Counted from the first letter of the stretch, positions 39,120 through 61,136 are shown. The stretch is 64,000 nt of DNA from Bacillales bacterium UBA1188 (GCA_002310135.1 DBYK01000003.1:24939-88938); one strand, 5' to 3'. A program made the numbers and translations. Notes: a model not told the origin generated them from the sequence alone.

Positions 39120-39878
39120 CTACATTCTTCTATATGGAATAACATTAGTTTTAGATGTAATAACATTTAATTTATCATCAAGATTCTTTAAATCTTCAGC
39201 AATACAATCTGCGAACCTTATTTCTATGTGATGCCCTACATCTAAAACATTTAAGCCTAATCTTTTAGCTTCTATTCCTTTAGAATAAGTCATATCTCCA
39301 GTGATAAATAAATCTAATTCTTTCTCTTTAGCAGAACTAAAATACTGAGATCCACTTCCTCCAATAATTCCAACTTTTTCTACTACTAAATTAGAAATTC
39401 CATAATAATCACAAGATTCGATATTTAGAACTCTTTTTATATTTTTAACAAAGTCTTCTAAAGAAGACTTATCAATATTTCCATAAACACCAATATTATC
39501 TTCCATAGATAATATTTCTTTATTTTTAAGTCCAATTAAATCTCCTAAATAATCATTCATTTTAACTGAATCAAAATTTGTATGAAGAGAATAATTTGCA
39601 ATATCATATTTTATTAAATCTTTAATAATAGAACCTAGACCTTCATCCAAATTTAAATTAGATAGAGGATGGAATAATAGAGGATGATGAGTGATTATTA
39701 AATCAACATTCTCAAGGATTGCTTCATCCATTACTTCTCTTGTAAGATCTAGTGCGAGTAATACTTTCTTTACATCTTTTTCGTATGAACCAACCATTAA
39801 TCCTACGTTATCGTAGGATGCTTTTAAGTCTATTGGATATAGGTTAGATAAATATGAGGTTAATTCCTTTAATTTCAT
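39120..39878 (-). CDS. Nif3-family dinuclear-metal protein (YqfO/YbgI-like)
   Basis: 252 aa with DLIITHHPLLF and LDVGHH motifs. It follows trmK, as in Bacillus yqfN-yqfO. Confidence 0.8.
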   Translation of the reverse strand: MKLKELTSYLSNLYPIDLKASYDNVGLMVGSYEKDVKKVLLALDLTREVMDEAILENVDLIITHHPLLFHPLSNLNLDEGLGSIIKDLIKYDIANYSLHTNFDSVKMNDYLGDLIGLKNKEILSMEDNIGVYGNIDKSSLEDFVKNIKRVLNIESCDYYGISNLVVEKVGIIGGSGSQYFSSAKEKELDLFITGDMTYSKGIEAKRLGLNVLDVGHHIEIRFADCIAEDLKNLDDKLNVITSKTNVIPYRRM

Positions 39879-40528
39879 TTAATTATCTCCTCTAATTGCT
39901 TAATTTCATTTATTATTGATTCTTTGGATTTAGCTTTATTTTTAGCTTCAGTTAAGATGTTAATCTTCTTTTCGATATATTCAATAAATTCTTTAGGCTT
40001 GTTCTTTAAAATTTTAGGCCCATATTCTAGTTCAGGTTGAGAATATTTAATAATTGAATTTGATTTAATTCCTACAATTATAGGATAAAAATGGCCTTTA
40101 CATTTAATAAATGCTTCATCTATTATCTCATAACCATTATTCATAAGATGACATCTTACAATATTAGAATCATTGTTAGGTTCAAGTATTAAAAGAGGAT
40201 TATTCTTTATAAGAGAAAAATCTAATATATCTTTTATAAGAATTCCTCCCATCCCTGCAATAACAACTGTGTCATATTTAAGGTCAGTAAGATTCTTAAA
40301 GCCATCAGATAGAATTGGGATTATAAAATCAGTTAAGTTATTGGCTTCGATGTTTAGAGTTGCTCTATTAAGAGGACCAATTTTATTATCAACTGCGTAT
40401 ACTATTTTTGTTTTATTCTCTTTAACAAGATAAATAGGTAGTAACGCATGGTCACAACCGATATCTACAACTATTGAATCCTCATTTATAAATGAGGAAA
40501 TAACCTTAAGCCTATAACTGATGTTCAT
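39875..40528 (-). CDS. trmK: tRNA (adenine22-N1)-methyltransferase TrmK
   Basis: 217 aa with the SAM motif VVDIGCDHALLPIYL and VIAGMGG. It lies directly downstream of rpoD. Confidence 0.8.
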   Translation of the reverse strand: MNISYRLKVISSFINEDSIVVDIGCDHALLPIYLVKENKTKIVYAVDNKIGPLNRATLNIEANNLTDFIIPILSDGFKNLTDLKYDTVVIAGMGGILIKDILDFSLIKNNPLLILEPNNDSNIVRCHLMNNGYEIIDEAFIKCKGHFYPIIVGIKSNSIIKYSQPELEYGPKILKNKPKEFIEYIEKKINILTEAKNKAKSKESIINEIKQLEEIIK

Positions 40529-46930: not shown

Positions 46931-47356
46931 TTAAACCCTCCTTAAATTAACTTTATTTAAAATTTTTTCTTGGATAGAAAACATTATTTCTTCTTCATCC
47001 TTATTCATATGATCATAACCTAGACAGTGAAGTGTTCCGTGAACAAGTAAGAAACCAAGTTCTCTATCTAATGAATGGCCATAATCATGAGCCTGTTCTA
47101 AAGCCTTAGGAAAAGAAATTATGATATCTCCAAGTTCACCTTTTTCATCGCTAGGAAAAGACAATACATCAGTTTCTTTATCAACATTTCTAAATTTTAA
47201 ATTGTATGATTTGATTGTATCATTATCAGTAATTAAAACATTTAGAATTCTTCTCTTAAAAACTTTAAGTTCAATAGAAGCTCTAAATACAATCTTTTTG
47301 AATATTTTTTTATAGTCTTCACTATTATATTCATTGATGATGTTGACTTTAATCAT
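46931..47356 (-). CDS. ybeY: rRNA maturation endoribonuclease YbeY
   Basis: 141 aa with the HGTLHCLGYDH metal motif. Confidence 0.9.
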   Translation of the reverse strand: MIKVNIINEYNSEDYKKIFKKIVFRASIELKVFKRRILNVLITDNDTIKSYNLKFRNVDKETDVLSFPSDEKGELGDIIISFPKALEQAHDYGHSLDRELGFLLVHGTLHCLGYDHMNKDEEEIMFSIQEKILNKVNLRRV

Positions 47357-48302
47357 TGTTTAGCCTCTCAATTATTTTTTGAACTAATGGATTTCTAACA
47401 ACATCATTTTTATCGAATTCAACAATTTTAATATTGTTGATATTATTAAGCTTATTTATGGCGTATTTCAGGCCAGAATCATTCTCGTTTATTAGATCAA
47501 TTTGAGTTAAATCTCCTGTAACAATCATCTTCGCGTTGAAGCCTAATCTTGTTAAAAACAACTTAATTTGTTTTTTAGTTGTATTTTGTGCTTCATCTAG
47601 AATAACATAAGCATTATCTAAAGTTCTTCCTCTCATATATGCAAGTGGCGCAATCTCGATAGTACCATTTTCTATGTATTCATCAGTTGTTTTCTTACCA
47701 AGAAGTTCATATAAAGAATCGTATAGTGGAATTAAATATGGATCAACTTTTTCTTTGATTTCTCCAGGTAAATAACCTAGTGATTCACCAGCTTCAACAA
47801 TAGGCCTTGATAATATTATTTTTTGATATTGATTTTGTTTAAATCTTTTAACTGCATCACATACAGCAATATAAGTTTTACCAACTCCTGCAGGACCATA
47901 AGCTAATACAATATCATTTTTGGATATATCTTTAAGATATGATACTTGAGAGAAAGTCTTAGGATAGATTGATTTCCCATTACAAGTTTTAACAATTTCT
48001 TCTCTAGATTTATAAAAATCAATAATTTCTTCTTTATCAACTTTATCGATGATTGATGAAATATAGATTACATCTCTTTCTCTCAATTGAACTTTAATTG
48101 AAGATAATGTGTAAAGGCAACCAAAAACATCTTCAATCTTTCTTGCCAAATCTTTTGATTCAGTATCAACTATAACTTCTTTATTTGATACAATAATCTT
48201 TGTTTGGAAATAGTCAGATAAAGCTTTTAAATTCTTATCAAATTCTCCAAGAATATTATGAAGATGGTTAGATTCTTTTATTATCAATTCAGTTTTATAC
48301 AT
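47349..48302 (-). CDS. phoH: PhoH-family ATPase
   Basis: 317 aa with Walker A GPAGVGKTY and Walker B ILDEAQN. Confidence 0.9.
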   Translation of the reverse strand: MYKTELIIKESNHLHNILGEFDKNLKALSDYFQTKIIVSNKEVIVDTESKDLARKIEDVFGCLYTLSSIKVQLRERDVIYISSIIDKVDKEEIIDFYKSREEIVKTCNGKSIYPKTFSQVSYLKDISKNDIVLAYGPAGVGKTYIAVCDAVKRFKQNQYQKIILSRPIVEAGESLGYLPGEIKEKVDPYLIPLYDSLYELLGKKTTDEYIENGTIEIAPLAYMRGRTLDNAYVILDEAQNTTKKQIKLFLTRLGFNAKMIVTGDLTQIDLINENDSGLKYAINKLNNINNIKIVEFDKNDVVRNPLVQKIIERLNND

Positions 48303-48323
48303 TAATACACCTTTTTCTTAAAT

Positions 48324-48332
48324 ATTATAGCA
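48324..48332 (-). promoter_or_regulatory. Extended -10 element (TGCTATAAT), candidate promoter of the phoH operon
   Basis: On the minus strand TGCTATAAT lies about 10 nt upstream of the AAAGGTG RBS. There is no good -35. In this AT-rich DNA the match could be chance. Confidence 0.35.
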
Positions 48333-48388
48333 TAAAAAATATTAAAAAGAATAGTTTACTATCTTTTTATATAATATTTTTTTGAAAT

Positions 48389-48417
48389 AAAAAAATGCCA
48401 TTGGCATTTTTTTTATC
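48389..48417. terminator. Palindromic terminator after rpsU
   Basis: ATGCCA-T-TGGCAT (48395-48407) is flanked by A7 and T8. It lies 9 nt after the rpsU stop. Confidence 0.6.
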
Positions 48418-48425
48418 TTTAGCAA

Positions 48426-48605
48426 TTAATGAGAGAATTTTCTTTTTCTATTCTCTCTCATTTTTTCTTTACGAGCAACACTAGGTTTGAGGTAAAATTC
48501 TCTTCTTCTGCATTCTTGTAGAGTACCTGTTCTAGATACATCTCTCTTGAAACGACGAAGAGCATCTTCTAAAGATTCATTTTCACGAACTATAGTCTTT
48601 GACAT
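48426..48605 (-). CDS. rpsU: 30S ribosomal protein S21 (absent from the ORF track)
   Basis: The product is [59 protein letters not shown] (59 aa), the classic bS21 sequence. AGAGGTG lies 6 nt upstream. Confidence 0.9.
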
Positions 48606-48640
48606 TTTTTCACCTCTTTTCTTTTAAAATTACCTTAATA

Positions 48641-48669
48641 ATTATATATTGTGAGATTTGAAATGTAAA
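48641..48669 (-). promoter_or_regulatory. Promoter of rpsU
   Basis: On the minus strand: TTTACA (48669-48664), a 17-nt spacer, then TATAAT (48646-48641). Confidence 0.55.
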
Positions 48670-48739
48670 GAAAAATTATTTAAAATATTTAAATACCCAT
48701 TTTTTCTTATTTAATAGCTTAAATTATCTAACAAAAATA

Positions 48740-48768
48740 TTGTTATATATTTTTAATTTTGTTAAAAT
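48740..48768 (+). promoter_or_regulatory. Candidate promoter of the 202-aa membrane protein gene
   Basis: TTGTTA (48740-48745), a 17-nt spacer ending in TGT, then TAAAAT (48763-48768). It is divergent from the rpsU promoter. Confidence 0.4.
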
Positions 48769-48787
48769 ATTAGAGAGGTATTTTTAT

Positions 48788-49396
48788 ATGATAAGCATAC
48801 TATTTGCAATTGATGACTTTCAAATTGATTTTAAAACTATCTTAATAATTTTAGGTGCTTTACTCATTACTATCTTTTTCTTATATATAATTGGAAAGAG
48901 AATAAGATTTAAAGGAAAAGTTAAACAACAAAGCAAAAAACTAAAGAAAAAATTTGCGAGTACATCAAAAAGTATAGAAACTATAATGTCTGAAATTGAT
49001 CAAACAAAAAAATACAATGGTTCATATAATTCTTTAAGAGGTTCTACTAAATCTAAGATTACAAAATATCTAATTAAGTGGATAGAAAAAGTTCCATTCT
49101 ATGTTTCTTTGAATCATAAAGCTAGAGAAAATAAATACAGAATCGTATGTATTGCCATTCAAGATGATTTAGAAGCAAGAAAAAATAAAGGCCAATGGAT
49201 TTATAATCCATCAGTTAAGAATAAAAAGAATTTAAAAACTCTATTAAAAGTAATCAACAAATTTAAAGTATGTAAAGCTACTTTAGATGTAATTAGTCAT
49301 ATTTTTGAACAAGAATCAATAAAAGAAAATTTCAATCAATTATATTATTCACAAGAAAATAATTTATATGTTAAATATTTAACAACAAAGAGGTGA
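48788..49396 (+). CDS. Single-pass membrane protein with a basic cytoplasmic domain, function unknown
   Basis: About 202 aa counted from the ATG that follows the GAGAGG RBS. One helix (ILIILGALLITIFFLYII) is followed by KRIRFKGKVKQQSKKLKKK. No known motif. Confidence 0.5.
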   Translation: MISILFAIDDFQIDFKTILIILGALLITIFFLYIIGKRIRFKGKVKQQSKKLKKKFASTSKSIETIMSEIDQTKKYNGSYNSLRGSTKSKITKYLIKWIEKVPFYVSLNHKARENKYRIVCIAIQDDLEARKNKGQWIYNPSVKNKKNLKTLLKVINKFKVCKATLDVISHIFEQESIKENFNQLYYSQENNLYVKYLTTKR

Positions 49397-49415
49397 TTTT
49401 TCACCTCTTTTTTAT
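49386..49415. terminator. Bidirectional terminator shared by convergent genes
   Basis: AAGAGGTGA pairs with TCACCTCTT across a 4-nt TTTT loop. It overlaps both stop codons and is followed by a T-run. Confidence 0.65.
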
Positions 49416-50239
49416 GAATTAATTATTATATTTTCAATCATTGTTTTACATTCATCAACTGTTTTAAGTGTTGGACCAATTGATAGTGTTTCTTTTATTG
49501 TTCCCCTTAAAACATAATAGCTACTTCCATCAGGGTTTACTGATATAACAAAAGATTGTTTAGAGATTTGTTTAATAAAATAATCAATTAATCGTTTAGC
49601 TTCCTTTTTATTCACGATATTAAAACTCTTCAATAACAAATTTTTATCTGAATCATATAAATGTATTTGATAAGTATCTTCATTAGATTCAATTTTCCAA
49701 TTTGATTTAGATATTTTTTTATTTATTCCTAAGTCTGAACTAAATTCAATTAAAGTGTTCTCTTCAACTAATTCAGCAGAAAATGAAGCTAAATCATTTA
49801 TTTTTAAAATATAGTCTTTAAAAGTGATCAATTCATCTACTGATTCTCTAGAATCAGATATTGCAACTATTTGATTATTAAACATGTAAATTAATCTATA
49901 TTTACCATTAATATCTTCAAAAATATTATAATTATTATCCAATATAGAACTTTTTATTTTCGATAATATTTGTTTACAAACTAAGACTGAAGATGTGTTT
50001 TCACTTTCAAGTAATTTATTTCCTTTTGAATCTAATAGATAAATATAATAATCTTGAATAGCTCTTTTAACTATTATATACGAATCTTGAGTAATAGTTA
50101 ATTTCTTGTTATTTTCTTCTCTTGGCTTTTTAATGCTTTTAATCAAAATAACTATTAAATTGACTATAATTACAACTACAAGTATGAGTATTAAAATTAA
50201 AGAATAGTACTCTTTCAAAAAATCAATGATTGTAAGCAT
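49412..50239 (-). CDS. Membrane-anchored protein with four YegP (DUF1508)-like repeats
   Basis: 275 aa with an N-terminal helix followed by KSIKKPREENNKK. Four units of about 55 aa follow, each of the form aromatic-x-hydrophobic...(D/N)(G/K)N..L..S......(A/C)...I (for example YYIYLLDSKGNKLLESE, YQIHLYDSDKNLLLKS). Confidence 0.5.
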   Translation of the reverse strand: MLTIIDFLKEYYSLILILILVVVIIVNLIVILIKSIKKPREENNKKLTITQDSYIIVKRAIQDYYIYLLDSKGNKLLESENTSSVLVCKQILSKIKSSILDNNYNIFEDINGKYRLIYMFNNQIVAISDSRESVDELITFKDYILKINDLASFSAELVEENTLIEFSSDLGINKKISKSNWKIESNEDTYQIHLYDSDKNLLLKSFNIVNKKEAKRLIDYFIKQISKQSFVISVNPDGSSYYVLRGTIKETLSIGPTLKTVDECKTMIENIIINS

Positions 50240-50241
50240 TT

Positions 50242-51720
50242 TTATTCCTCAACTAATATTTCAAATGTAGATTTTGATTCTTTTAGAATCTTTTCAGCTA
50301 TAGGTGAGATTGATTGAAGTACAAAATGCAACTTCTTATCATAAACGCCACCTCTATAAATAAGTTTATAAAATTTAACATCTTCTTTAAGTAAACCTTT
50401 TTCTTTAAGTGTTTTGACAGAAACAACTTCATTATCTTCATATAGTTTATTTACAACATCAAGGTATACAATATCTCTTTCACCTTCAACTGGAATCTTA
50501 ACAGTTTCATAAGATTCAACAAAGTTATTATTATCATCAATAGATAAAACATATCTTTTTTCTTCTCTATAAACTGCGAAGTTGTTTTTCTTTTTAGACT
50601 GTATTTCTGCGACTAAATCTGCTTCAAATTTACTAGAATAATCGCCATATTTAGCATAAGTTTTGATAAGTCCTTTTTCTCTTAATGATTCTTTTGTTTG
50701 ATATTCATAAGAATAGATTTGTTTTTCTTTTATAAATCCTTCATCAAGTAAGAATCTCTTTTTTAGATCTTTAATAAGTTCGATACCTAATTCTAGTCTT
50801 TCATCATTCTTTATTCTAAGCATTAATGGAGTTTCTTTAAATAGCGAATAATTTGACACATTTTCTAATTTAAGTTTTCTTAGATTATATTTCTCAGGCA
50901 TTAGATTTAGATAAAGAACTAAATACTTCCCTCTTATTTGCATTTTAGCGAGTTTAATCTTACCGATTGAATAGGCATCGTACTTCCAGCTGATTCTAGA
51001 TTTGACTTTTATATATGATAATAATGTATTTTTTAAAATTGAATAATATTCTTGTACCTTTGAACTTGATTGTATTAATTTAGCTTCAAAACTTCTTCTC
51101 TCTTTAACAAATACTTTTGAACCATCCACAAATATAGGTACTTTTTTGTATTTATAATCATCTTTTTTATCATCTTTATAATAATTGTCTACTTCAACAA
51201 ATTCAGTTGGATCGTATGTATATTTTTCTTCTTTTGGTTCATATTTATCTTCAATTTGAATAAGGCCTCTTTTTACGAGTTCACTTTCACTTTCAATATT
51301 TAGATAATAATTCTCATTTGGAATCTTTGAAGTTTTTAATTTAAATAAAGCAATTTCTTCATCAATTAATCTAAATGCGTATTTAAGAGTTCTATCTGAT
51401 TTAACATGCATTTTAAATTTAGTGTCTTTATATCTTCTTCTATCACTTACATCTTCTTGATGATAAATATTTTGTGGATAATTATTTGGATCTAAATTCA
51501 AATAAAGAGAAACGTATTTTCCTCTTACTGATAATTTCGCAAAATTGATTCTTCCAACATTAAATGCATCATAAAACCAACTGATTCTTGATTTCATCCC
51601 ATTAATTGACATCAATTTATTCTTTAAAATCTCATAAACCTTCTTTACTCTATCATCAGATAAAATATATTTTGCGATAAATGATTTTCTATAAGTTATT
51701 GGAACTTCCTTTTTTGGCAT
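50242..51720 (-). CDS. Lysine-rich protein with an internal duplication and a uL15-like C-terminal domain, function unknown
   Basis: 492 aa. Residues about 11-125 and 209-325 are clear paralogues (SFIAKYI...MKSRISWFYDAFNVGRINFAKLSVRGKYVSLYLNLDP versus SFEAKLI...VKSRISWKYDAYSIGKIKLAKMQIRGKYLVLYLNLMP). The tail is LKEKGLLKEDVKFYKLIYRGGVYDKKLHFVLQSISPIAEKIL. Confidence 0.5.
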   Translation of the reverse strand: MPKKEVPITYRKSFIAKYILSDDRVKKVYEILKNKLMSINGMKSRISWFYDAFNVGRINFAKLSVRGKYVSLYLNLDPNNYPQNIYHQEDVSDRRRYKDTKFKMHVKSDRTLKYAFRLIDEEIALFKLKTSKIPNENYYLNIESESELVKRGLIQIEDKYEPKEEKYTYDPTEFVEVDNYYKDDKKDDYKYKKVPIFVDGSKVFVKERRSFEAKLIQSSSKVQEYYSILKNTLLSYIKVKSRISWKYDAYSIGKIKLAKMQIRGKYLVLYLNLMPEKYNLRKLKLENVSNYSLFKETPLMLRIKNDERLELGIELIKDLKKRFLLDEGFIKEKQIYSYEYQTKESLREKGLIKTYAKYGDYSSKFEADLVAEIQSKKKNNFAVYREEKRYVLSIDDNNNFVESYETVKIPVEGERDIVYLDVVNKLYEDNEVVSVKTLKEKGLLKEDVKFYKLIYRGGVYDKKLHFVLQSISPIAEKILKESKSTFEILVEE

Positions 51721-51739
51721 ATAATCACCTCAACTAAAA

Positions 51740-51760
51740 ATAGTAGAATATTTCTACTAT
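51740..51760 (-). terminator. AT-rich 9-bp hairpin between mtaB and the 492-aa gene (weak terminator or leader structure)
   Basis: ATAGTAGAA-TAT-TTCTACTAT. On the minus strand only TTTT follows, then the GAGGTGA RBS. Confidence 0.35.
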
Positions 51761-51817
51761 TATTATATAAATATTTATAAAAAAAGTCCATTAAAAATAT
51801 TAAAACGTGTGCTTAAT

Positions 51818-53116
51818 CTATAAGATTTGCGATAAAACAGCATCTTTCTCAATATTTAATAATTTAACATTAATTAATTTATTTAAATATTCTTTATTAC
51901 CTTTTGCCTTAACATATATATAATTGCCTGTATGACCATAGAGATAACCATCTTTATATATCTCAAATATGACATCTAATTCTTTAAATAAATTATTTTG
52001 AATATAAGATAAACTGTTATCATCTGATAATTTTAGAACTATTTTACTTCTTTCTTTCTTTATTTTTTCATCTACTTGGGGAAGCGCTTCAGCTTTAGTC
52101 CCTTTTCTAATTGAATATTTAAATGTGTGAATCTTTTGAAAATTAATATTTTTTAATGTTTCTAATGATTCATTAAAATCATCAATTGTTTCAGTTGGGA
52201 ATCCGACAATGAAATCAGTTGTAATTGATATATTATTAATTTCTTTTCTTATCTTATCAATTGTTTCAATAAAATATTCTTTATCATAATGTCTATTCAT
52301 GAGCTTTAAAATTCTATTGGAACCAGATTGTAAAGGAATATGAAGATGTTTCACAATCTTTTTACTATTTTTTAAAAGATCAATAAATTCATCAGTTATT
52401 TGTTTAGCTTCAATTGATGAAATTCTTATTCTATCTAAACCTTCTATTTTTTCTAATTCTTTAAGTAAATCAACTAAAGATGTGCCAATATCTTTGCCAT
52501 ATGAACCAGTATCTATTCCAGTAACAACTATCTCTTTATGCCCATTTAAAACCAACGTTTTGGCTTCTTTTATTACATCTTTTAGCTCCTTGCTCCTTGA
52601 ATTACCTCTAGCATATGGAATAATACAATATGAACAAAAATTTGTACAGCCATCTTGAACTTTTAAAAAAGCTCTTGTGTGTTCTTTGAAACTATCTACA
52701 AGTAAATTGTCATATTTACTATGAAAGATATTGTCGTCAATTTCACATATATCTTCTTTATTATTTATATATTCTAGTAATTTATTATATACTTCTTCTT
52801 TATTTGTGCTTCCAAGAACGATATTTAATCCAGGAATATCTTTAAGTGTCTTATCGATTTGTGCGAGACATCCAAATGCAACAGATATTCCATTTGGGTT
52901 CATTGATATAACTCTTCTAATTAACTTTTTAGATTTTCTACTTCCTTCTTCTGTAACTGTACAAGTATTGATTAAAGAAATATCTGATTTTTTTTGATCA
53001 GATACTCTTATTAATCCTTTAGATGAAAGTAATTGAGAAATCGCTTCAGTTTCATAATAATTTACTTTGCATCCTAGGCTTATCACTTTATACGTTAATC
53101 CTTTTAATTCATTCAT
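51818..53116 (-). CDS. mtaB: tRNA threonylcarbamoyladenosine methylthiotransferase MtaB (radical SAM)
   Basis: 432 aa with an N-terminal MTTase cluster (LGCKVNYYETEA ... NTCTVT), radical-SAM CTNFCSYCIIPYARG and a TRAM-like end. Confidence 0.85.
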   Translation of the reverse strand: MNELKGLTYKVISLGCKVNYYETEAISQLLSSKGLIRVSDQKKSDISLINTCTVTEEGSRKSKKLIRRVISMNPNGISVAFGCLAQIDKTLKDIPGLNIVLGSTNKEEVYNKLLEYINNKEDICEIDDNIFHSKYDNLLVDSFKEHTRAFLKVQDGCTNFCSYCIIPYARGNSRSKELKDVIKEAKTLVLNGHKEIVVTGIDTGSYGKDIGTSLVDLLKELEKIEGLDRIRISSIEAKQITDEFIDLLKNSKKIVKHLHIPLQSGSNRILKLMNRHYDKEYFIETIDKIRKEINNISITTDFIVGFPTETIDDFNESLETLKNINFQKIHTFKYSIRKGTKAEALPQVDEKIKKERSKIVLKLSDDNSLSYIQNNLFKELDVIFEIYKDGYLYGHTGNYIYVKAKGNKEYLNKLINVKLLNIEKDAVLSQIL

Positions 53117-53142
53117 ATTAAAACCTAATTCTATTACTTTTT

Positions 53143-54048
53143 TTAAAAAACCATTTTAAACTCTTTTGGAAGTGCTGCAGTGATTTCTATATCCTCGCCC
53201 TTATTAATGTCATAGAAGACAAGTTTTGAGGCATGAAGGCCTAATCTTCCTATTGGGTTCTTTGTGTATCCATATTTTTCATCAAAAACTATTGGATGAC
53301 CTAAATCATGCATATGGACTCTTATCTGGTTTTTCCTTCCTGTATCTATTTCAACTTTTAATAAACTATATTCTTTATTTTCATTTATAACCTTATATCT
53401 TGTGATTGCTTTTTTGCCATTTGGATCTTTTGTTGAATAAACCAAATTATTTGCGTTTAATTTTAAATAAGATTTAATAGTTCCTTCTTTCTTTTCAAAT
53501 ACACCTTCAACAAGCGCATAGTACTCTCTTACTTTAACGTCTTCATTCCAGTGCATTTTTAGCTTAGAATGAAGTTTGATGTCTTTCGCGAATAATAAGA
53601 CTCCTGATGTCTCCTTGTCGATTCTATGCAAAATATAAGGCCTTAACTTAGGATTTTTATTACTTAAATATTTTGAAACATAATAATAAGCTGATTCAAT
53701 CTCTTTATTAGATTCAATAGATAAAAGACCTGCCTTTTTATTAATCGCAATATAATCTTCATTTTCAAATATGATATCTAGTTTATAATTTGAATCTAAA
53801 TTATTATTTTTAACAATATCTACTCTGTTTTTCAATATTTTAACTTCATCATCTTTAGCGAGTGGATAATCAAATTTAGTAACTACAAAACCATTTACTA
53901 AGACTTTATGAGAAGATAATATAGATTTAACACTATTTCTTGAAAGTGGTAATTTATCTAATAAATAATCAAGCAAAAAAGAAGATTTATTAATCTTAAA
54001 AATATATGTATATTCTATTCTTTTTTGTCTATTATCGTTTTTATTCAT
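53143..54048 (-). CDS. RluA-family pseudouridine synthase with an S4 domain
   Basis: 301 aa with catalytic HRIDKETSGVLLFAK and GRKNQIRVH. Confidence 0.85.
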   Translation of the reverse strand: MNKNDNRQKRIEYTYIFKINKSSFLLDYLLDKLPLSRNSVKSILSSHKVLVNGFVVTKFDYPLAKDDEVKILKNRVDIVKNNNLDSNYKLDIIFENEDYIAINKKAGLLSIESNKEIESAYYYVSKYLSNKNPKLRPYILHRIDKETSGVLLFAKDIKLHSKLKMHWNEDVKVREYYALVEGVFEKKEGTIKSYLKLNANNLVYSTKDPNGKKAITRYKVINENKEYSLLKVEIDTGRKNQIRVHMHDLGHPIVFDEKYGYTKNPIGRLGLHASKLVFYDINKGEDIEITAALPKEFKMVF

Positions 54049-54050
54049 TT

Positions 54051-56534
54051 TTATCCAACAGTATTTAATTGAGCGAATATTTCATCTACTAGAGTATTAC
54101 TGTGAATAATCGCAGCCTCTCTTGTTAGGTGAGATACACTATCAGTACAATCTTCAGCACTGAATAGATGATCTAAATAATTTGAAATGTAAGGAAAACT
54201 AATAGTAGATTTAACTAAGTTTGCGAAATCACCATATAATTCACTTTCACATTCAAATGCATTTTCCCACATTCCTACATGTGCAAAATACAATTTAATA
54301 GAATAAGGTAAATATTTCTCCTCATAAATTCTTTCAACTTTAGTTTGCACAATATTAGCCAATACTTGGAAATTAGGCGCAGGAGTTCTTGGCTCTAAAG
54401 AATAATGAATTATTTCAAAATTTTCTGCCCTAGTGAAGAATTCATCAACAGTATCATTATAATCTAGATATGTTAGAGTTTCATTATTTAAAATAGCTTC
54501 TATTTTCGCGCCAAATGTGAATTCACTGCTTCCATTCATATAATCATAATATGAATCGAAAAATCTTTCATAATCTCTTATATCTATTAATTTTAATAAG
54601 TCATAATAAGTCTCAAATACATACCAAACAGGTAATTCTAATGTATTAGACATCATTGTTTGACCGTATTCTGGAATGAAAACCATGATATCATTCAAAT
54701 CCATAAAATATGAGAATAGTTCGAGCATCAAACAACCACTTATATATGCGTTTTGTGCACAATTTAAGAATGTATATCCTCTTTCACTTACTCTATCGTT
54801 GATAGTTTTGCCATCTATACCTTGGAATGTAGAACTTCCACCATAGAATAAAATATAATTAAGTTCTGAATCTTTATTCTTATTTAGTATTTCAAATCTT
54901 CTAATTGTTGTTCCAATTAAATGAGCTGTACCCATAGGTGGATAATAAGCATTAACTCTTAAATTCTTAAGATTAGGACAATCTATAAATGAAGAATCAT
55001 GAATGATTTCTACTCTATCTGTCATATGTAGTGTAGTAAAGTTTATGAGGTTATTAAATGCATTATCTTTTACTTCTATGATTGAGGTAGATAAATAAAT
55101 CTCTTGAACTATAGAATTATTAATTAAGAATGAAGAATCGATTATTTTAACTTCTAAGTCTTCTATATAACTTGGTATAACGAGCACACTATCATTTCCT
55201 TTATAATTAGTAAGTTTAATGCCAGTTTTGTTCTGATGGTTATCCAAAATATAGCTATATTCAAAATCTTCTGTGTTAGATTCTTTTATCCAAATCAAAT
55301 ATAAATCTATTTCTTTATTTTCTTCAAATACCCTTGAACCTAAAGAATATGATTTACCACTTCCATCAGAAAGAGTATTATATTCTTTTATTAAATAACC
55401 TTCTCTATAAAAAGTTTTATATCCCCATTCACCTAAAGATGCAGGATAAAGATATACTGGACTATCAAAAACATAATTGATTAATTCATCGGTTGAGTCT
55501 TTGATGTTTCCACCATTTGTATGATATCTCACTAAAGCTTTATAGTTATCAGCTAAGACAAAGACAGGTGTTATATCATCTATGTCTATTTCTTCACTTA
55601 TATTTAAATTATTTGCGTATGAATATAATTCATCATTCAACAAATAATGAGAAAAGATATATCCATGATTCGGATATGCACTAAGCGTTCTCTTATCATT
55701 ATCACTAAATACATCAAGCCTACCATTTGTAAAATACAAAGATGTAGTATTCTTTTTTCTAGTATAAATAATTATATCTTGATCAGATTCAACATTATTA
55801 AAAGAGATTACTCCATCAAGATAAATTGCGCCACAATTATTTGAATAATATTCATAATCATCATCTAGAATAATGCTAAATGTTGCGTCTTCTCCTCTTT
55901 CAATAACTAATTCACTATCACCATCTATAGTATATCCTTCGCCACTAAGTAGTCTTATAGTGTATGTATCTTTGATGATTGATTTATTTCTAAGTTGAAT
56001 ACTAATATCTAAATTTGATTTGATATTAAAGATAGTTAGAATTGAATTAGTATAACTATAATCAAGATTAATTAAAGAATCTGAATTAATAATTGAGTAA
56101 AATTCTTGGCTATCATCTATTACTAAAGATAATTCTATGCTTGAACCATATAAAACACTGAATGTTTGATCATAATTGACTGTTTCTTCATTCACTAAAA
56201 AAGATAAGCCATCAGTTTTATGAACAGTTACATTATATTCATTCTTTCTGACATCTAAAGATATTGTTTTATTTGTTTTCACATTATTTATGGATAATAC
56301 ACCATTTTCAAAAGTTGCTCCTGCATTATTAGAGAAATATGTGCATCCTTCATCTATAACTATATCGAAAGTTGCTGAAGCACCATATTCAATGTCTTGA
56401 TATTTAGAAGATGTTGTATGATAAAAATCCCCATCTTCAACCATTACTCTTAAAAGTTTAGAAGTAGTGTTTACATTACATGAGGTTAAAAATATAAAAG
56501 TTATTGATAATAAAAGTAATAAGAATTTTTTCAT
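54051..56534 (-). CDS. Large lipoprotein: three tandem beta-modules, a Listeria-Bacteroides repeat, BspA-type LRR and a C-terminal SGNH/DltD-like domain
   Basis: 827 aa with lipobox FLTSC. It has three repeats of about 85 aa (…YGASATFDIVIDEGCTYFSNNAGATFENGVLS…). It also has Flg_new-like YHTNGG...GYLIKEYNT...LYLIW, LRR_5-like IEVKDNAFNNLINFTTL and GGSSTFQG ... DSVSHL. Confidence 0.6.
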   Translation of the reverse strand: MKKFLLLLLSITFIFLTSCNVNTTSKLLRVMVEDGDFYHTTSSKYQDIEYGASATFDIVIDEGCTYFSNNAGATFENGVLSINNVKTNKTISLDVRKNEYNVTVHKTDGLSFLVNEETVNYDQTFSVLYGSSIELSLVIDDSQEFYSIINSDSLINLDYSYTNSILTIFNIKSNLDISIQLRNKSIIKDTYTIRLLSGEGYTIDGDSELVIERGEDATFSIILDDDYEYYSNNCGAIYLDGVISFNNVESDQDIIIYTRKKNTTSLYFTNGRLDVFSDNDKRTLSAYPNHGYIFSHYLLNDELYSYANNLNISEEIDIDDITPVFVLADNYKALVRYHTNGGNIKDSTDELINYVFDSPVYLYPASLGEWGYKTFYREGYLIKEYNTLSDGSGKSYSLGSRVFEENKEIDLYLIWIKESNTEDFEYSYILDNHQNKTGIKLTNYKGNDSVLVIPSYIEDLEVKIIDSSFLINNSIVQEIYLSTSIIEVKDNAFNNLINFTTLHMTDRVEIIHDSSFIDCPNLKNLRVNAYYPPMGTAHLIGTTIRRFEILNKNKDSELNYILFYGGSSTFQGIDGKTINDRVSERGYTFLNCAQNAYISGCLMLELFSYFMDLNDIMVFIPEYGQTMMSNTLELPVWYVFETYYDLLKLIDIRDYERFFDSYYDYMNGSSEFTFGAKIEAILNNETLTYLDYNDTVDEFFTRAENFEIIHYSLEPRTPAPNFQVLANIVQTKVERIYEEKYLPYSIKLYFAHVGMWENAFECESELYGDFANLVKSTISFPYISNYLDHLFSAEDCTDSVSHLTREAAIIHSNTLVDEIFAQLNTVG

Positions 56535-56537
56535 ATA

Positions 56538-57986
56538 TTATTCTTCTTTCACTAAATTATCACTATATCTACTCCAGAAATAACCTGTCTTAAATTCTGA
56601 CAATTTCCCATTTACAATCACAATCTTTAAAGTAGTTGGAGCGCCTTTAAGTAGGTTATCTGAAACAGAGATATTAGCTTCAGATTTTTCTAAAATATAA
56701 ATATGCGTTAAAGAACTACATCCTAAGAAAGCTCCATTATCAATAAAACTATATCCAACTGGTACTCTTACTTTTTTAAGGTTAGATAAGTTGTTCAGTG
56801 ATGTAGATGAAAGAGATATTATATATTTATTATCATGGATTACTGGAAGAATTATTTCTTCTAATTCTTTTACTTCGTTCTTATAACCTACTATACTTAA
56901 GAATCCATTTTCATCTTCTTCATACAAGAAAAGATTTGAATCTGTGTAATTTAAAGTAAAATCTATGTCTCTACCTTGATAAATTGGTTCAGGTGGAGTT
57001 GGAAGAATATAATCTAATTTTGTTGCATCCCCATCTTTAAGTTTTAAATCTTTAACTAGTTGTACAGTTCTCAATATTTTACCTTTATCATTCAAATGAA
57101 AATTTGTATCATAAAAATACCTATAATCATAAATGTAGTCTACTGGGTCAGAAATAATGCTACAATCCAAGTTATCAAATAAGAATTTATAATAATCTTC
57201 TATATCGCTCATATAAGTGTTTGGATTAAGCGCTCTTTCATTTACCGGTGAAAATGAATAATAAACAGTTGCACCTAATTTAGTGCAATACTTCACATAT
57301 TTATTCACATATTCGATGAAATCTTTCTCAATATCGTTTTTGTTGTGCTCAACTACATTATTTAAAAAACCAGTTGGAAGAATATTCCCTTCACGTGGGA
57401 ATAAATCTTCGCCGATTTCTCCATATTCATTCACAGAATTATTGCAATAAACATTAGATAAATCAAAAACTATATTATTTCTTTTATTATCAATCTTAGT
57501 TAATGAAAAATCATAGAATGCGCCAATTACATCTTTATAATTATCAAAACCAATCTTCGATAATATATCTAGTCTTTCTTCAGTTGCTTTAAGCATTGAT
57601 TCTTTACCAAAATATAGAGAAGTAGATTCTTTTGTAACTTCAGGTGCGATGATGATAATGTCACCTTTATTGATATTAGTCTTAGATAAATCTAACATCA
57701 CTTTAGTGCCAAAAGAGCCATATAGTCCGAAAGATACTATAGGTTTATGATATAGTTCAAAGAATAATTCTGAATCCATTCCAAAAGCAATGTTTGATCC
57801 ACCAATTAAGATAACTTTTTCTTCATTGATGGAATTAAGCCTATCATATTGTTTAGATAAAGCAGCATAATAAGTTTTATCGTATTGTGGTGAATATGAC
57901 ATAGCAACTATAGGGATGCTTAAAAGAGGTGTTAAAACTAACACAAAGAATATAATTATATATATCAAAAGGTGTTTCTTTTTCAT
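56538..57986 (-). CDS. Membrane-anchored SGNH/DltD-like domain fused to a BspA-type LRR
   Basis: 482 aa with an N-terminal helix. It has ILIGGSNIAFGMD, a later DTNFHLNDKG and the C-terminal LRR_5-like FIDNGAFLGCSSLTHIYI. The stop lies 3 nt before the next gene. Confidence 0.55.
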   Translation of the reverse strand: MKKKHLLIYIIIFFVLVLTPLLSIPIVAMSYSPQYDKTYYAALSKQYDRLNSINEEKVILIGGSNIAFGMDSELFFELYHKPIVSFGLYGSFGTKVMLDLSKTNINKGDIIIIAPEVTKESTSLYFGKESMLKATEERLDILSKIGFDNYKDVIGAFYDFSLTKIDNKRNNIVFDLSNVYCNNSVNEYGEIGEDLFPREGNILPTGFLNNVVEHNKNDIEKDFIEYVNKYVKYCTKLGATVYYSFSPVNERALNPNTYMSDIEDYYKFLFDNLDCSIISDPVDYIYDYRYFYDTNFHLNDKGKILRTVQLVKDLKLKDGDATKLDYILPTPPEPIYQGRDIDFTLNYTDSNLFLYEEDENGFLSIVGYKNEVKELEEIILPVIHDNKYIISLSSTSLNNLSNLKKVRVPVGYSFIDNGAFLGCSSLTHIYILEKSEANISVSDNLLKGAPTTLKIVIVNGKLSEFKTGYFWSRYSDNLVKEE

Positions 57987-58009
57987 TATAACACTCCCTT
58001 TTTACAAGC

Positions 58010-58040
58010 AAATAAAGTGAGGAAAACCTCACTTTATTAT
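58010..58040 (-). terminator. Hairpin/terminator after the GH3 gene
   Basis: AAAGTGAGG-AAAA-CCTCACTTT, a 9-bp stem. On the minus strand ATTTGCTT follows, so there is no clean U-tract. Confidence 0.55.
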
Positions 58041-58065
58041 ATCATAATTATTTAAATAATTTATA

Positions 58066-61000
58066 TTATTCGTTCAAATTTTGAACATTCTCTTCTACTG
58101 AAATTGAATCATCAGAAGAGGCATCAATTTCTAAAGCCAGTTCTTTTTTAGCTTTTGTAATTGCGAAGAATCCCCATACTGCAAATCCTAGTGCAAGAGC
58201 AACTGGTAAGAATTGAAGTACAGTTTCCCACCAAGCATAGTATTCGATATAATATCCACCTTCGCCAGAACCATTCATAGCGTTAGATCTAGAAATTGTA
58301 TATAGAATATTCTTAGTTGCTTGTCTTAAAACAGTGATATCTGCTGCAGTTGTTGCATTCCAAGATTTTGGTAATGTAGCAAGGTTCAAATCTCCACCAG
58401 CATAACACATTTGTTTAGTGTTCATAAATGGTTCAGTATTGAAGTCGCAGATTACTAAGCCTTTGAACCCCCATTCATCTCTTAAAATAGTTGTTAAGAG
58501 TCTGTAGTCACCACCAGTCCAAAGTGTACCAATTCTATTAAATGATGACATAACGCCCATTGCTCCGCCTTCTTTAACAGCGATTTCAAATGGTTTTAAG
58601 TATAATTCTCTTAAAGATTGTTCAGTGAGCCATGTACATACACCGCTTCTATTTGTTTCTTGATCGTTTACACAGAAGTGCTTAACTTGACAATATACAC
58701 CTCTACTTCTAGCACCGAGAACAACTTGAGCAGCTAATTTGCCTGAAATAAATGGATCTTCTGAATAATATTCAAAGTTACGTCCTGAGAATGGAGTTCT
58801 GTGTAAGTTAACAGCTGGAGCATACCAACCTGCATAAGGTTTCTTATCACCTCTTTGGTTACCAATAACACCTTCATTACCTACTGATTGACCCATTTCA
58901 TATGCGAGTTCTGTATTCCAAGTTGCAGCAATAACGCATTCACTAGCATAAGAACATGTTCTATATACTGGGTTAGATGATTCAATAGCTGCTAAGAAGA
59001 ATACGAATCCAACTGGTCCATCTGATGAGAATGTTGGCATTAAACCGATTGATGATAAGGCAGTAGTCTTGAACGCACCTTTCATAGTGAAATCCATCAT
59101 CTCATTAACTGTTAAGATATTGAGATAATTTTCCCATCTAGCATCATTATAAAGAACCATTGTAGTTCCAGCATCATCTCTTATAACTTCATCGTTTTCA
59201 TCGAACATAATTAATCTAAATAATTGTTCTGTTGAGTCTGGAGATGCTACTGTTGCTTGTTCAGGCATTGGAACGTTATCTTGAGTATAAATTGGGTTAT
59301 TGATATAAGTTTCATCTTTAATCTTATTTAAGAATTCTTGAGGTACAGTTCTTTCAGCATTAGAGCCATTTAATACTTCGTTTACTGGGAATGTTCCAGC
59401 AAAATTAGTTCTTGAAAGCACTGATTCCATACCATAATTTTCTTCAAAACTTACATCATCATATAAATTTTCAACTACAGTTCCTGTAGTAGTATCATTT
59501 CTATATTGAACATTTGATGTTAGAGTGAATGATCTATTTAATACTTCAGTGTGAGAGTTCTTCATTACTCTTACAGTATAGAGTCCTGAATCTAGTTCAT
59601 AACCTCTAAAGCTGTTATTATTCTTATCATCAAAGTCGTATGATGCGAAATCATAACCATTAAATTCAATAACAACATCTTCTTGTTGATTTGGATTTAG
59701 AAGACTAGTTTTTGCAAATCCAGTGAGCACTATATAAGATTTTTCAATCTCACCTTGAGTATATGGAGCAGTCACATAAACTTGAACAACATCTTTACCA
59801 GCAACACTACCAGTATTCTTTACAGTAACTGTTAGTGTGAATTTTTGATCTTGTGCTTGAGTCCAAGTTAATTCTTCACCAGCATCGAATGATGCATCTT
59901 TTAATGTCCAAGTAAATGTAGTGTATGATAGGCCATATCCAAATGGGAATACAACATTATTGTTATACCAAGTTTCATTGTCTAATCCTCTTGTTTCATA
60001 ATATCTATAACCTAAATAGATTCCTTCTTCATAATCTACATAGTGTTCTGTGATATCTTGAGTGCCACCACCTTGTGGTAAATATTGGTTACCATTTTCT
60101 ACTAAATAATCTGAAAAGTTTTGGTAAGTTGGATCTTTTGTGAAATCTCTTTGATATAAATCAATAGTTCTACCAGAAGGATTTACACTACCTTTAAGCA
60201 CTCTACCAAGTGCCATAATTCCTGAGTATCCAGGACCACCAATCCATAGCGCACCTTGAATCTTAGTATCGATATTTGCCATACCATCAACGAGAGTTAA
60301 ATCATTATCATTGATATTATCTAAGAATCCAAGTTCCATTTGAGTTGAAGAGTTGATTATGACAATAACTTTATTAAAGTTATTGCATGCCTCAACAAGC
60401 ATATCTTGTTCATTTTTATCAAGTTCAAGATAATGGTCGGCAGGATTAAGTGCACCTTCAGTATCAATCATAGTTCTTGGAAGGTCATAAGATTCACCAC
60501 CAATTCTTGTGAATACTACTAAAGCAGCATCGCTAAAGTTAGCGTAACTATTTCTGATATCTTGTGTATATTTTGAAATTGGTGTTTCACCAGTAGCCAT
60601 TCCTGAATATGTTCCTCTACCATTATCTAATCCAGGAGAATCAGGTCTACCATTTCCTGATAGATTAGATTTTGAATAGAAGTTATGAAGTACTGTATTA
60701 TAAACAAATCCAGCAGCTTCCAAGCTATCGTAAAGTGTAGGAGTTTCGCTTGTTACAGTGAAAGCACCAGAACCTGAACCACCATAAGATAGATTCACAG
60801 AGTTTTTACCAAACACACTAATTCTGCTTCCCTCTGCGAGTGGTAAAGCATTACCTTCGTTTTTAAGAAGAATGATACCTTCTTCATTTATTTTTTCATT
60901 TAATAAATTAGCTTTTTTAAATGCATCTTCTTTATCATCATAATCAGATACATAATATGTACCGCCACCAAAATTCTTTGTCATTCTAGGGCCAAGTACA

Positions 61001-61125
61001 CCTGTTAATAATTCAAAGAATACAGTTTCAGCGAGAATTAAAACTATTACAAAGAATACAATAAGAGATACTGATGTAATAAGCCATGATCTTACGCCTT
61101 TATTTTTAAATACGTTAACTTTCAT
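58066..61125 (-). CDS. Glycoside hydrolase family 3 (beta-glucosidase-like), domain-permuted, with a membrane helix at each end
   Basis: The catalytic (beta/alpha)8 block lies in the C-terminal half (SSDGPVG, GRNFEYYSEDP, KHFCVNDQETNR, GFKGLVICDFN). The alpha/beta-sandwich and FnIII-like parts come first. I place the start at the ATG preceded by AGGAGGG. Hydrophobic helices lie at both termini. Confidence 0.8.
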   Translation of the reverse strand: MKVNVFKNKGVRSWLITSVSLIVFFVIVLILAETVFFELLTGVLGPRMTKNFGGGTYYVSDYDDKEDAFKKANLLNEKINEEGIILLKNEGNALPLAEGSRISVFGKNSVNLSYGGSGSGAFTVTSETPTLYDSLEAAGFVYNTVLHNFYSKSNLSGNGRPDSPGLDNGRGTYSGMATGETPISKYTQDIRNSYANFSDAALVVFTRIGGESYDLPRTMIDTEGALNPADHYLELDKNEQDMLVEACNNFNKVIVIINSSTQMELGFLDNINDNDLTLVDGMANIDTKIQGALWIGGPGYSGIMALGRVLKGSVNPSGRTIDLYQRDFTKDPTYQNFSDYLVENGNQYLPQGGGTQDITEHYVDYEEGIYLGYRYYETRGLDNETWYNNNVVFPFGYGLSYTTFTWTLKDASFDAGEELTWTQAQDQKFTLTVTVKNTGSVAGKDVVQVYVTAPYTQGEIEKSYIVLTGFAKTSLLNPNQQEDVVIEFNGYDFASYDFDDKNNNSFRGYELDSGLYTVRVMKNSHTEVLNRSFTLTSNVQYRNDTTTGTVVENLYDDVSFEENYGMESVLSRTNFAGTFPVNEVLNGSNAERTVPQEFLNKIKDETYINNPIYTQDNVPMPEQATVASPDSTEQLFRLIMFDENDEVIRDDAGTTMVLYNDARWENYLNILTVNEMMDFTMKGAFKTTALSSIGLMPTFSSDGPVGFVFFLAAIESSNPVYRTCSYASECVIAATWNTELAYEMGQSVGNEGVIGNQRGDKKPYAGWYAPAVNLHRTPFSGRNFEYYSEDPFISGKLAAQVVLGARSRGVYCQVKHFCVNDQETNRSGVCTWLTEQSLRELYLKPFEIAVKEGGAMGVMSSFNRIGTLWTGGDYRLLTTILRDEWGFKGLVICDFNTEPFMNTKQMCYAGGDLNLATLPKSWNATTAADITVLRQATKNILYTISRSNAMNGSGEGGYYIEYYAWWETVLQFLPVALALGFAVWGFFAITKAKKELALEIDASSDDSISVEENVQNLNE

Positions 61126-61136
61126 TATTCTCCCTC

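Follow-up and report, generated by a model that had tools for sequence, protein, structure and literature searches.

What is encoded between rpsU and mtaB in Bacillales bacterium UBA1188, and do the genes found there belong together? This question was addressed for a stretch of 64,000 nucleotides (nt) from this organism (GCA_002310135.1 DBYK01000003.1:24939-88938; hereafter the window, with positions counted from its first letter), in which a preliminary description had placed three genes without any recognised enzymatic motif at positions 48,606 to 51,817. Gene A encodes a soluble protein of 492 amino acids (aa), gene B a 275-aa and the convergent gene C a 202-aa membrane protein, and together they had been proposed to form an uncharacterised membrane-associated RNA- or ribosome-binding module. 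The coordinates of the three genes, the 2-nt junction between A and B and the two flanks rpsU and mtaB all match the list of open reading frames (ORFs) and the family scores (Table 1). That the three genes are uncharacterised holds as well, as no well-characterised family covers any of them in Pfam, NCBIfam and PDB searches. The analysis showed that A represents, in free-standing form, a previously undescribed cytoplasmic module which is widespread in Firmicutes and normally tethered to the membrane, and that A, B and C are a conserved, lineage-specific cluster of uncultured Bacilli with low guanine-plus-cytosine (G+C) content from rumen and gut.

Protein A is, as had been noted from its composition, very basic (isoelectric point, pI, 9.3; net charge +21) and ends in a ribosomal-protein-like tail, which could be identified by Foldseek as well as by profile comparison as a homologue of the ribosomal protein uL15 (rplO; PF00828, TIGR01071). 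With Foldseek, the C-terminal domain retrieved dozens of uL15 chains from the PDB, the best ones from Borrelia and Listeria, and the best matches had expectation values (E) of 4e-5 to 8e-5, root-mean-square deviations of 1.0-2.0 Å and 27-32% identity over ~77 residues. A profile of 22 family members matched the uL15 of Enterococcus in the PDB with an E of 5.8e-18, whereas the E. coli protein reached only 5.6e-5. Firmicute uL15 in general (Enterococcus, Listeria, Bacillus, Staphylococcus) far outscored E. coli in this search, and this difference argues for a Firmicute origin of the uL15-like domain. The match was always confined to residues ~70-146 of the uL15 chain (profile positions 73-141 of the family model). 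The last ~80 residues of A thus share fold and sequence with the globular C-domain of uL15. Unlike uL15, A lacks the extended N-terminal half rich in glycine, lysine and arginine (approximately residues 1-70, which enter the rRNA core), carries ~410 unrelated residues instead and is encoded outside the spc operon. Judging from these alignments, the end domain appears to have arisen by duplication of the C-terminal half of rplO in a Firmicute. The family has motifs of its own in this domain, 'ARG' and 'KMI'. In an alignment of the A family, 12 of the 14 sequences matched PF00828 at E ≤ 1 (best E 3.1e-10); A of the window itself stayed below the curated uL15 cut-offs, with 17.6 versus 21.5 bits for PF00828 and 24.3 versus 77.95 bits for TIGR01071.

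Ahead of this end domain, A contains two copies of a basic alpha/beta domain of ~120 aa, which is here named X120. Both copies are strongly basic (pI ~9.9) and represent the most basic parts of the protein. X120 modelled alone gave a predicted local distance difference test score (pLDDT) of 94.5. For an alignment-based AlphaFold model of full-length A the mean pLDDT was 80, but the predicted template modelling score (pTM) was 0.41, so that the domains can be regarded as reliable and their mutual arrangement cannot. In the model, the spacer of A is a beta-hairpin, and each X120 domain is followed by a short helix-strand extension. The best structural match of X120 was a phage protein annotated as 'DUF5655 domain-containing protein' (E 2.3e-4, template modelling (TM) score 0.67), and the best fold matches in the PDB were YjbR (2fki; E 0.019, TM 0.58) and YdhG/DUF1801 proteins (TM ~0.5). 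X120 accordingly resembles the DUF5655, MmcQ-YjbR and YdhG (DUF1801) group in its alpha-beta sandwich and differs from it by occurring in one to seven tandem copies behind membrane anchors, together with a uL15-like cap. On the sequence level, no match to X120 was obtained in the PDB at E ≤ 10, and none of 25 X120 domains matched the Pfam families PF18899, PF04237 and PF08818 at E ≤ 1; one full-length A orthologue matched Pfam DUF5655 (E 4.1e-6). Neither Pfam nor NCBIfam contains a model of the X120 family.

Two further ties of X120 are links on the level of the domain only. The second X120 domain of A matches the C-terminal ~120 positions of the PADLOC phage-defence candidate PDC-S18 (E 3e-13), and in A as well as in nine other X120 proteins this match is restricted to positions ~195-330 of 302-365. 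The domain is homologous to the C-terminal part of PDC-S18, the N-terminal ~195 positions were never matched, and the A locus is not among defence or mobile genes but a housekeeping one (mtaB, rpsU, phoH, ybeY, era) in every genome examined. No relevant literature on PDC-S18 was found. The other tie is a fusion of X120 to DUF2357, which was seen in the proteins P0043 and P0028. Separately, a YjbR-family gene (PF04237, E 2e-9) lies directly downstream of an X120 gene, between lysS and pflB, at 6420-6773 of locus L018, and the same 117-aa YjbR gene also directly follows X120 genes in the loci L019 and L022.

How widespread the module is became visible from a search of 1.84 billion representative proteins, clustered at 50% identity, with a profile built from 38 X120 domains. 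This yielded 3,500 clusters at E ≤ 1e-3, of which 3,172 reached E ≤ 1e-10, with proteins of up to 4,721 aa and one to seven X120 copies. In 91 of the 148 best-scoring proteins a strong transmembrane helix precedes the first X120 domain, and in none does one follow the last. A uL15-like domain is present in 45 of these 148 proteins, always at most 9 residues away from the C-terminus, and 44 of the 45 possess the upstream helix. Of the 91 helix-bearing proteins, 66 have a net charge of +2 or more over the 12 residues past the helix, and 89 have an acidic linker thereafter. Two architectures could be distinguished. The first consists of a short N-terminal anchor without preceding positive charges, a patch of lysine and arginine (K/R) residues, an acidic, proline-containing linker, one to three X120 domains and sometimes the uL15-like domain. 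In the second, found in giant proteins, a cleavable-looking signal peptide and an ectodomain of more than 1,000 residues (Flg_new repeats, beta-helix) precede the helix, a KKK/RRR patch, an acidic linker, two to three X120 domains and the uL15-like domain. As the positive-inside rule can be applied to the helix and its K/R patch, the module is predicted to be cytoplasmic in both architectures.

A comparable picture was obtained from 79 further genome loci. Most of these belong to uncultured Clostridia, Christensenellales-type and others, and some to Bacilli and Erysipelotrichales. The helix lies in the same ORF as X120 in 72 of the 79 loci, 38 have the uL15-like end, and 57 encode a single X120 domain behind a short anchor. 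In addition, split forms exist, in which a very large gene, encoding a protein with a C-terminal membrane helix and KKK, is immediately followed by a gene for a helix and X120. These were found in seven Clostridia loci of the first scan (L012, L014, L016, L017, L024, L025, L026) and in ~14% of the 79 further loci, and the pairs look like a split form of the fused giant proteins that end in X120 and the uL15-like domain. The split-form genes are located at positions ~5.4-6.0 kb of each Clostridia locus, and the X120 gene there encodes a helix, an acidic linker and X120; the giant partner in L026 is a 4,664-aa product, and a fused counterpart with the order giant-X120-uL15-like is, for example, P0189 (4,721 aa). 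Against this background the soluble A of the window lineage is the exception, being the sole helix-less protein among the 45 bearers of the uL15-like domain, and it is precisely this form that has two small N-terminally anchored membrane proteins encoded beside it. The membrane association proposed in the preliminary description has thereby gained independent support, since relatives nearly always fuse the module behind a transmembrane helix.

The three genes are functional and under purifying selection. In comparison with the sister strain L032 (synonymous divergence, dS, ~0.4-0.6), the ratio of non-synonymous to synonymous substitution rates (dN/dS) was 0.043 for A, 0.147 for B and 0.078 for C, and the comparison genes mtaB, ybeY and phoH gave 0.105, 0.063 and 0.027, respectively. 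Approximately 20 orthologues of A with 478-508 aa and 56-63% identity were found in rumen and gut metagenomes, and identical copies of the window genes are present in cow-rumen runs. The host genomes are labelled as uncultured Bacilli, Firmicutes or Bacillales and stem from cattle, sheep, yak and reindeer. One contig (L006, JAILNJ010000093.1) with its A orthologue P0007 carries the labels 'Gammaproteobacteria bacterium' and 'uL15 family ribosomal protein', both of which look wrong, as gene order and sequences are those of the low-G+C Bacilli lineage.

The survey of other genomes bore out the expectation that the genes recur together, and they do so always between mtaB and rpsU. Besides the window, the order mtaB-A-B-C(convergent)-rpsU-phoH is kept in L005, L006, L008, L010 and L032/L033. 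The loci L001/L002 contain A and C without B, and L003/L004/L007 contain A and a weakly similar B (26%) without C. In L003 (10326-10505, minus strand) and also in L007, a 59-aa ORF stands in place of C; it encodes only a membrane helix and a basic tail and represents either a vestige of C or its minimal form. Between genomes A is as conserved as MtaB (56-61% versus 55-66% identity); B and C are only ~28-38% identical. The distance from the stop of A to the start of B is 1-4 nt in all loci with an unambiguous B start, namely L003/L007, L005, L008, L010, L032 and the window, and B is predicted to be translationally coupled to A. Profiles of B and C found relatives in these loci only and always beside A. 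With the B sequence alone, a word-indexed search returned only B itself and one relative of 84% identity, and the orthologues were therefore taken from the loci that had been found through A.

For B and C, the earlier reading of a single N-terminal helix followed by a K/R patch was retained, and by the positive-inside rule the bulk of both proteins is expected in the cytoplasm. In B, ~240 cytoplasmic residues follow the helix and patch. A profile of seven B orthologues matched YegP (2k8e) in the PDB with an E of 3.3e-5 in two stretches and 2k49 (SO_3888) with an E of 2e-3 over ~100 residues, with 2k7i and 3bid also being among the six matches listed. Pfam DUF1508 matched three of the seven B orthologues (best E 4.6e-5), and B of the window alone was not matched. 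Going by these profile matches, B may be a membrane-anchored protein that carries two putative YegP-like pairs in tandem. Its cytoplasmic part would resemble the YegP/UPF0339/DUF1508 family in that the units are arranged in tandem pairs as in YegP, and would differ from it in having an N-terminal membrane anchor and two such pairs. Domains of the functionally uncharacterised YegP type are stress-induced and form pseudo-dimers from tandem copies.

The cytoplasmic domain of C comprises ~165 residues with a net charge of +25. C orthologues share 27-38% identity and invariably lie between A/B and rpsU in convergent orientation. No relatives were found outside the lineage, and searches of Pfam, NCBIfam and PDB gave no match. 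The membrane protein family TIGR04561 scored 19.9 bits (cut-off 30), with only the helix and the charged stretch being covered. A relationship of C to the domains of A or B was considered and ruled out, as the hhalign comparisons aligned only 7-21 columns, with probabilities of 0.1% and 16%.

What, then, could the cluster do? As a tentative interpretation, which we regard as possible but short of probable, it may constitute a membrane-proximal nucleic-acid docking module, probably for ribosomes or rRNA, that is tethered in trans. The basic X120 pair and the uL15-derived domain would bind a nucleic-acid partner, the membrane tether missing from A would in this lineage be supplied in trans by B and/or C, and ribosomes or RNA would as a result be docked at the membrane. 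The favoured partner would be the 50S subunit or 23S rRNA, because of the ribosomal ancestry of the end domain and because module genes repeatedly lie near genes of translation and RNA metabolism, a tendency not assessed statistically: they recur beside rpsU-phoH-ybeY-era here and beside rpsO-pnp, lysS and infC-rpmI-rplT...rnj in Clostridia. A more specific version, in which the module docks the 50S subunit, its precursor or rRNA at the membrane and the mtaB-rpsU operon is the split, trans-tethered form, appears more doubtful. The original proposal of a membrane-associated RNA- or ribosome-binding module is partly supported: the membrane association is strengthened by the fused helices of the relatives and the ribosomal aspect by the homology to uL15, whereas the binding of RNA or ribosomes is still conjecture.

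Several observations weigh against a docking of ribosomes or rRNA. The ribosome-biogenesis neighbours, which had been used as an argument before, turned out to be weak evidence, as the Clostridia relatives sit in many other contexts, and in small genomes chance alone will quite often place a gene beside translation genes. The site of uL15 is already occupied in the mature 50S subunit. Moreover, the uL15-like domain of A in the window is slightly acidic (net charge -2), and this A has lost the C-terminal GG kept by most relatives. By their similarity, the fold relatives of X120 would point to DNA rather than RNA, and with a pTM of 0.41 the domain arrangement of A in the full-length model is uncertain. 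Finally, neither B nor C can be an obligatory tether, as L001 does without B and L003/L007 do without C.

The fold relatives of X120 would suggest a different partner. X120 might bind chromosomal or foreign DNA, with the module being a link between nucleoid and membrane or a DNA sensor and the uL15-derived domain merely providing an extra contact. Domains of the YjbR type, to which the best fold match in the PDB belongs, have been predicted to bind DNA by a 'double wing' as in T4 MotA and have been found fused to nucleases. The DUF2357 fusions (a restriction-system domain), the match to the C-terminal domain of PDC-S18, the bona fide YjbR genes directly downstream of three X120 genes and the strongly basic character of each X120 domain all fit with this idea. 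However, it offers no explanation for the Firmicute-like uL15 domain with which 45 of the 148 best hits end, A resides in a housekeeping neighbourhood and not in a defence island, and PDC-S18 is matched by the domain alone and not by the whole protein. DNA as the partner is judged unlikely, although not much more so than the specific ribosomal version. A reading without any nucleic acid, in which the module anchors, sorts or assembles (giant) surface proteins and A is a soluble adaptor, draws on the fusion to giant signal-peptide proteins with Flg_new and beta-helix ectodomains, on the split pairs right after helix-anchored giants and on the surface and lipoprotein genes 2-10 kb upstream in the window. 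Yet a giant partner is missing from the vicinity of most module proteins (a single X120 with a short anchor is encoded in 57 of the 79 loci), no giant gene adjoins A in the Bacilli lineage, and charge, fold relatives and uL15 ancestry all point to nucleic acid. Such a scaffold is considered distinctly unlikely.

A and its neighbours might also share no common function at all and simply be independent lineage-specific genes in a variable mtaB-rpsU gap. The absence of B from L001 and of C from L003/L007 is in line with this, as are the much faster evolution of B and C (~28-38% identity compared with 56-63% for A) and the location of C on the opposite strand with its own signals. In Bacillus subtilis, the mtaB-rpsU gap presumably also holds unrelated genes. 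On the other hand, B and C homologues were found beside A only, and the tight A-B junction is conserved wherever the start of B is unambiguous. As the module of A is elsewhere tethered to the membrane in cis, neighbouring membrane anchors would be a non-trivial coincidence. An accidental neighbourhood is considered rather unlikely, somewhat less so than the scaffold. Far less probable than any of these is a role of A as a paralogue or alternative version of the ribosomal protein uL15, which the NCBI name of P0007 implies and the homology of the C-terminal domain might suggest. Only residues ~70-146 of uL15 are matched, the N-terminal half that penetrates the rRNA is absent, ~410 of the 492 aa are unrelated, the scores are under the curated cut-offs, and in relatives the domain terminates membrane proteins that can be as long as 4,721 aa. 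The candidate of a true uL15 paralogue was accordingly ruled out, uL15 membership of A is effectively refuted, and the name 'uL15 family ribosomal protein' is misleading.

The closest functional analogy to a docking of ribosomes at the membrane is provided by YqjD, ElaB and YgaM, membrane-anchored 50S binders linked to hibernation, for which ribosome binding has been demonstrated. The likeness concerns the proposed working principle only, and for A, B and C ribosome binding is putative. No relation in sequence or fold exists: the YqjD group consists of DUF883 proteins which are anchored by their C-terminal tail and occur mainly in Proteobacteria, while the anchors of B and C are N-terminal. 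A Pfam scan of A, B and C gave no match to DUF883.

The surroundings of the cluster in the window are of a conventional kind. The Pfam families UPF0004 and Radical_SAM also match the product of mtaB, and past rpsU the genes phoH, ybeY, cdd, era, recO, glyS, dnaG, rpoD, a 217-aa ORF and a Nif3-family gene were recognised by NCBIfam or in the ORF list. The textbook Firmicute backbone that had been described is thus confirmed for phoH-ybeY-cdd-era-recO-glyS-dnaG-rpoD-x-nif3. It could not be confirmed for trmK, as the 217-aa ORF that had been given this name (39875-40528, minus strand) had no NCBIfam match at E ≤ 1e-10, a threshold at which its nine neighbours were matched. The G+C content of A, B and C (0.21-0.27) is similar to that of the flanking genes (0.22-0.34, mostly 0.26-0.30). 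A horizontally acquired, phage or defence island was rejected on account of this flank-like G+C and of the same position being kept in genomes which are only 55-65% identical, a PHROGs search gave nothing significant for the locus, and PADLOC was matched on the level of the domain only. Upstream, 2-10 kb from the cluster, four large genes are found at 54051-62846 (minus strand), several of them for surface proteins or lipoproteins. Lipoprotein-like signal peptides (…LTSC, …IACQ) are seen in two of the four products and LRR_5 repeats in the orthologue of the 827-aa product, and the 1,035-aa product has hydrophobic segments at both ends with an acidic tail after the C-terminal one.

Within the cluster, the ribosome-binding site of A is GAGGTGA, and that of B (GAGGA) lies within the end of A, whose stop is followed after 2 nt by the ATG of B. 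The ORF list alone extends C to an upstream TTG at 48740; the ATG at 48788, from which the 202 aa are counted, has the better ribosome-binding site (GAGAGG). The hairpin terminator common to the convergent genes C and B, which had been described as perfect and bidirectional, was borne out by folding (-14.1 kcal/mol, z = -5.3), as none of 200 shuffled sequences folded as well; it overlaps the TGA stop of C. Sigma-70-like promoter matches are not enriched, with 43 observed and 42.2 expected in shuffled sequence. As promoter-like matches are just as common in shuffled DNA, the promoters of A-B and of C are plausible but unproven. A hairpin with a run of U between the -10 box and the ribosome-binding site of A could be a weak mtaB terminator or a stem-loop at the 5′-end of the A mRNA; its stem is kept in the sister strain L032, where the loop differs (z = -1.8). 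Directly behind mtaB lies a conserved motif which, written as (A/T)RGCACACGT, has its sole exact copy in the 64-kb window at this place. Its core GCAYRCRT is found upstream of the A gene in seven of eight orthologous loci (L001, L003, L006, L008, L009, L010, L032) despite a protein identity of only 55-65%, and the motif might act as an operator or as part of a promoter. An Rfam search of positions 47000-54000 returned nothing at E ≤ 1, and no structured RNA or ribosomal-protein leader was recognised there.

Table 1. Positions of the genes, domains and putative signals of the A-B-C locus in the window.
Feature	Position	Strand	Description	Support
rpsU (flank)	48426-48605	(-)	bS21	TIGR00030 68.8 bits, PF01165 75 bits
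Promoter-like site before C	48740-48768	(+)	TTGTTA-17-TAAAAT with TG extension	not distinguishable from background
Gene C	48788-49396	(+)	202 aa; N-terminal helix, residues 17-36 (48836-48895), and very basic ~165-aa domain	
Terminator common to C and B	49387-49410	.	hairpin, AAAGAGGUGA-UUUU-UCACCUCUUU	10-bp perfect stem
Gene B	49412-50239	(-)	275 aa; N-terminal helix, residues 11-33 (50141-50209), K/R patch, two putative tandem YegP/DUF1508-like units	
Gene A	50242-51720	(-)	soluble, basic, 492 aa; X120, linker, X120, beta-rich spacer, uL15-like end	
uL15-derived domain of A	50245-50487	(-)	residues 412-492	Foldseek and profile
X120 domain 2 of A	50743-51108	(-)	residues 205-326, net charge +14	42% identical to domain 1
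X120 domain 1 of A	51337-51699	(-)	residues 8-128, net charge +12	model, fold match
Hairpin before A	51735-51758	(-)	AU-rich hairpin and U-run, between -10 box and ribosome-binding site of A	-11.7 kcal/mol, z = -2.8
Promoter-like site of A-B	51762-51790	(-)	TGGACT-17-TATAAT	10 of 12 consensus positions
Conserved motif	51805-51814	(-)	AAGCACACGT, 3 nt past the mtaB stop, upstream of the A promoter-like site	
mtaB (flank)	51818-53116	(-)	tRNA t6A37 methylthiotransferase	TIGR01579 419 bits (cut-off 357)

Each of the domains belongs to a known fold group, namely the uL15 C-domain, the DUF5655/YjbR/YdhG group and, probably, YegP. For X120, its combination with a uL15-like cap, its placement behind a helix and an acidic linker and the A-B-C cluster, no model exists in Pfam, NCBIfam or PHROGs, and no description of any of them was found in the literature searched. 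With X120 a large domain family of ~3,500 clusters without a Pfam or NCBIfam model has been defined, and the soluble 492-aa A is a tractable biochemical version of a module that is otherwise found on very large membrane proteins of uncultured gut anaerobes. If ribosomes or rRNA are indeed what the module binds, Firmicutes would possess an analogue of the proteobacterial proteins YqjD, ElaB and YgaM that is assembled from entirely different parts. The module would then also be a rare case of a ribosomal-protein domain being reused outside the ribosome, and it could bear on the organisation of translation at the membrane in bacteria with giant surface proteins.

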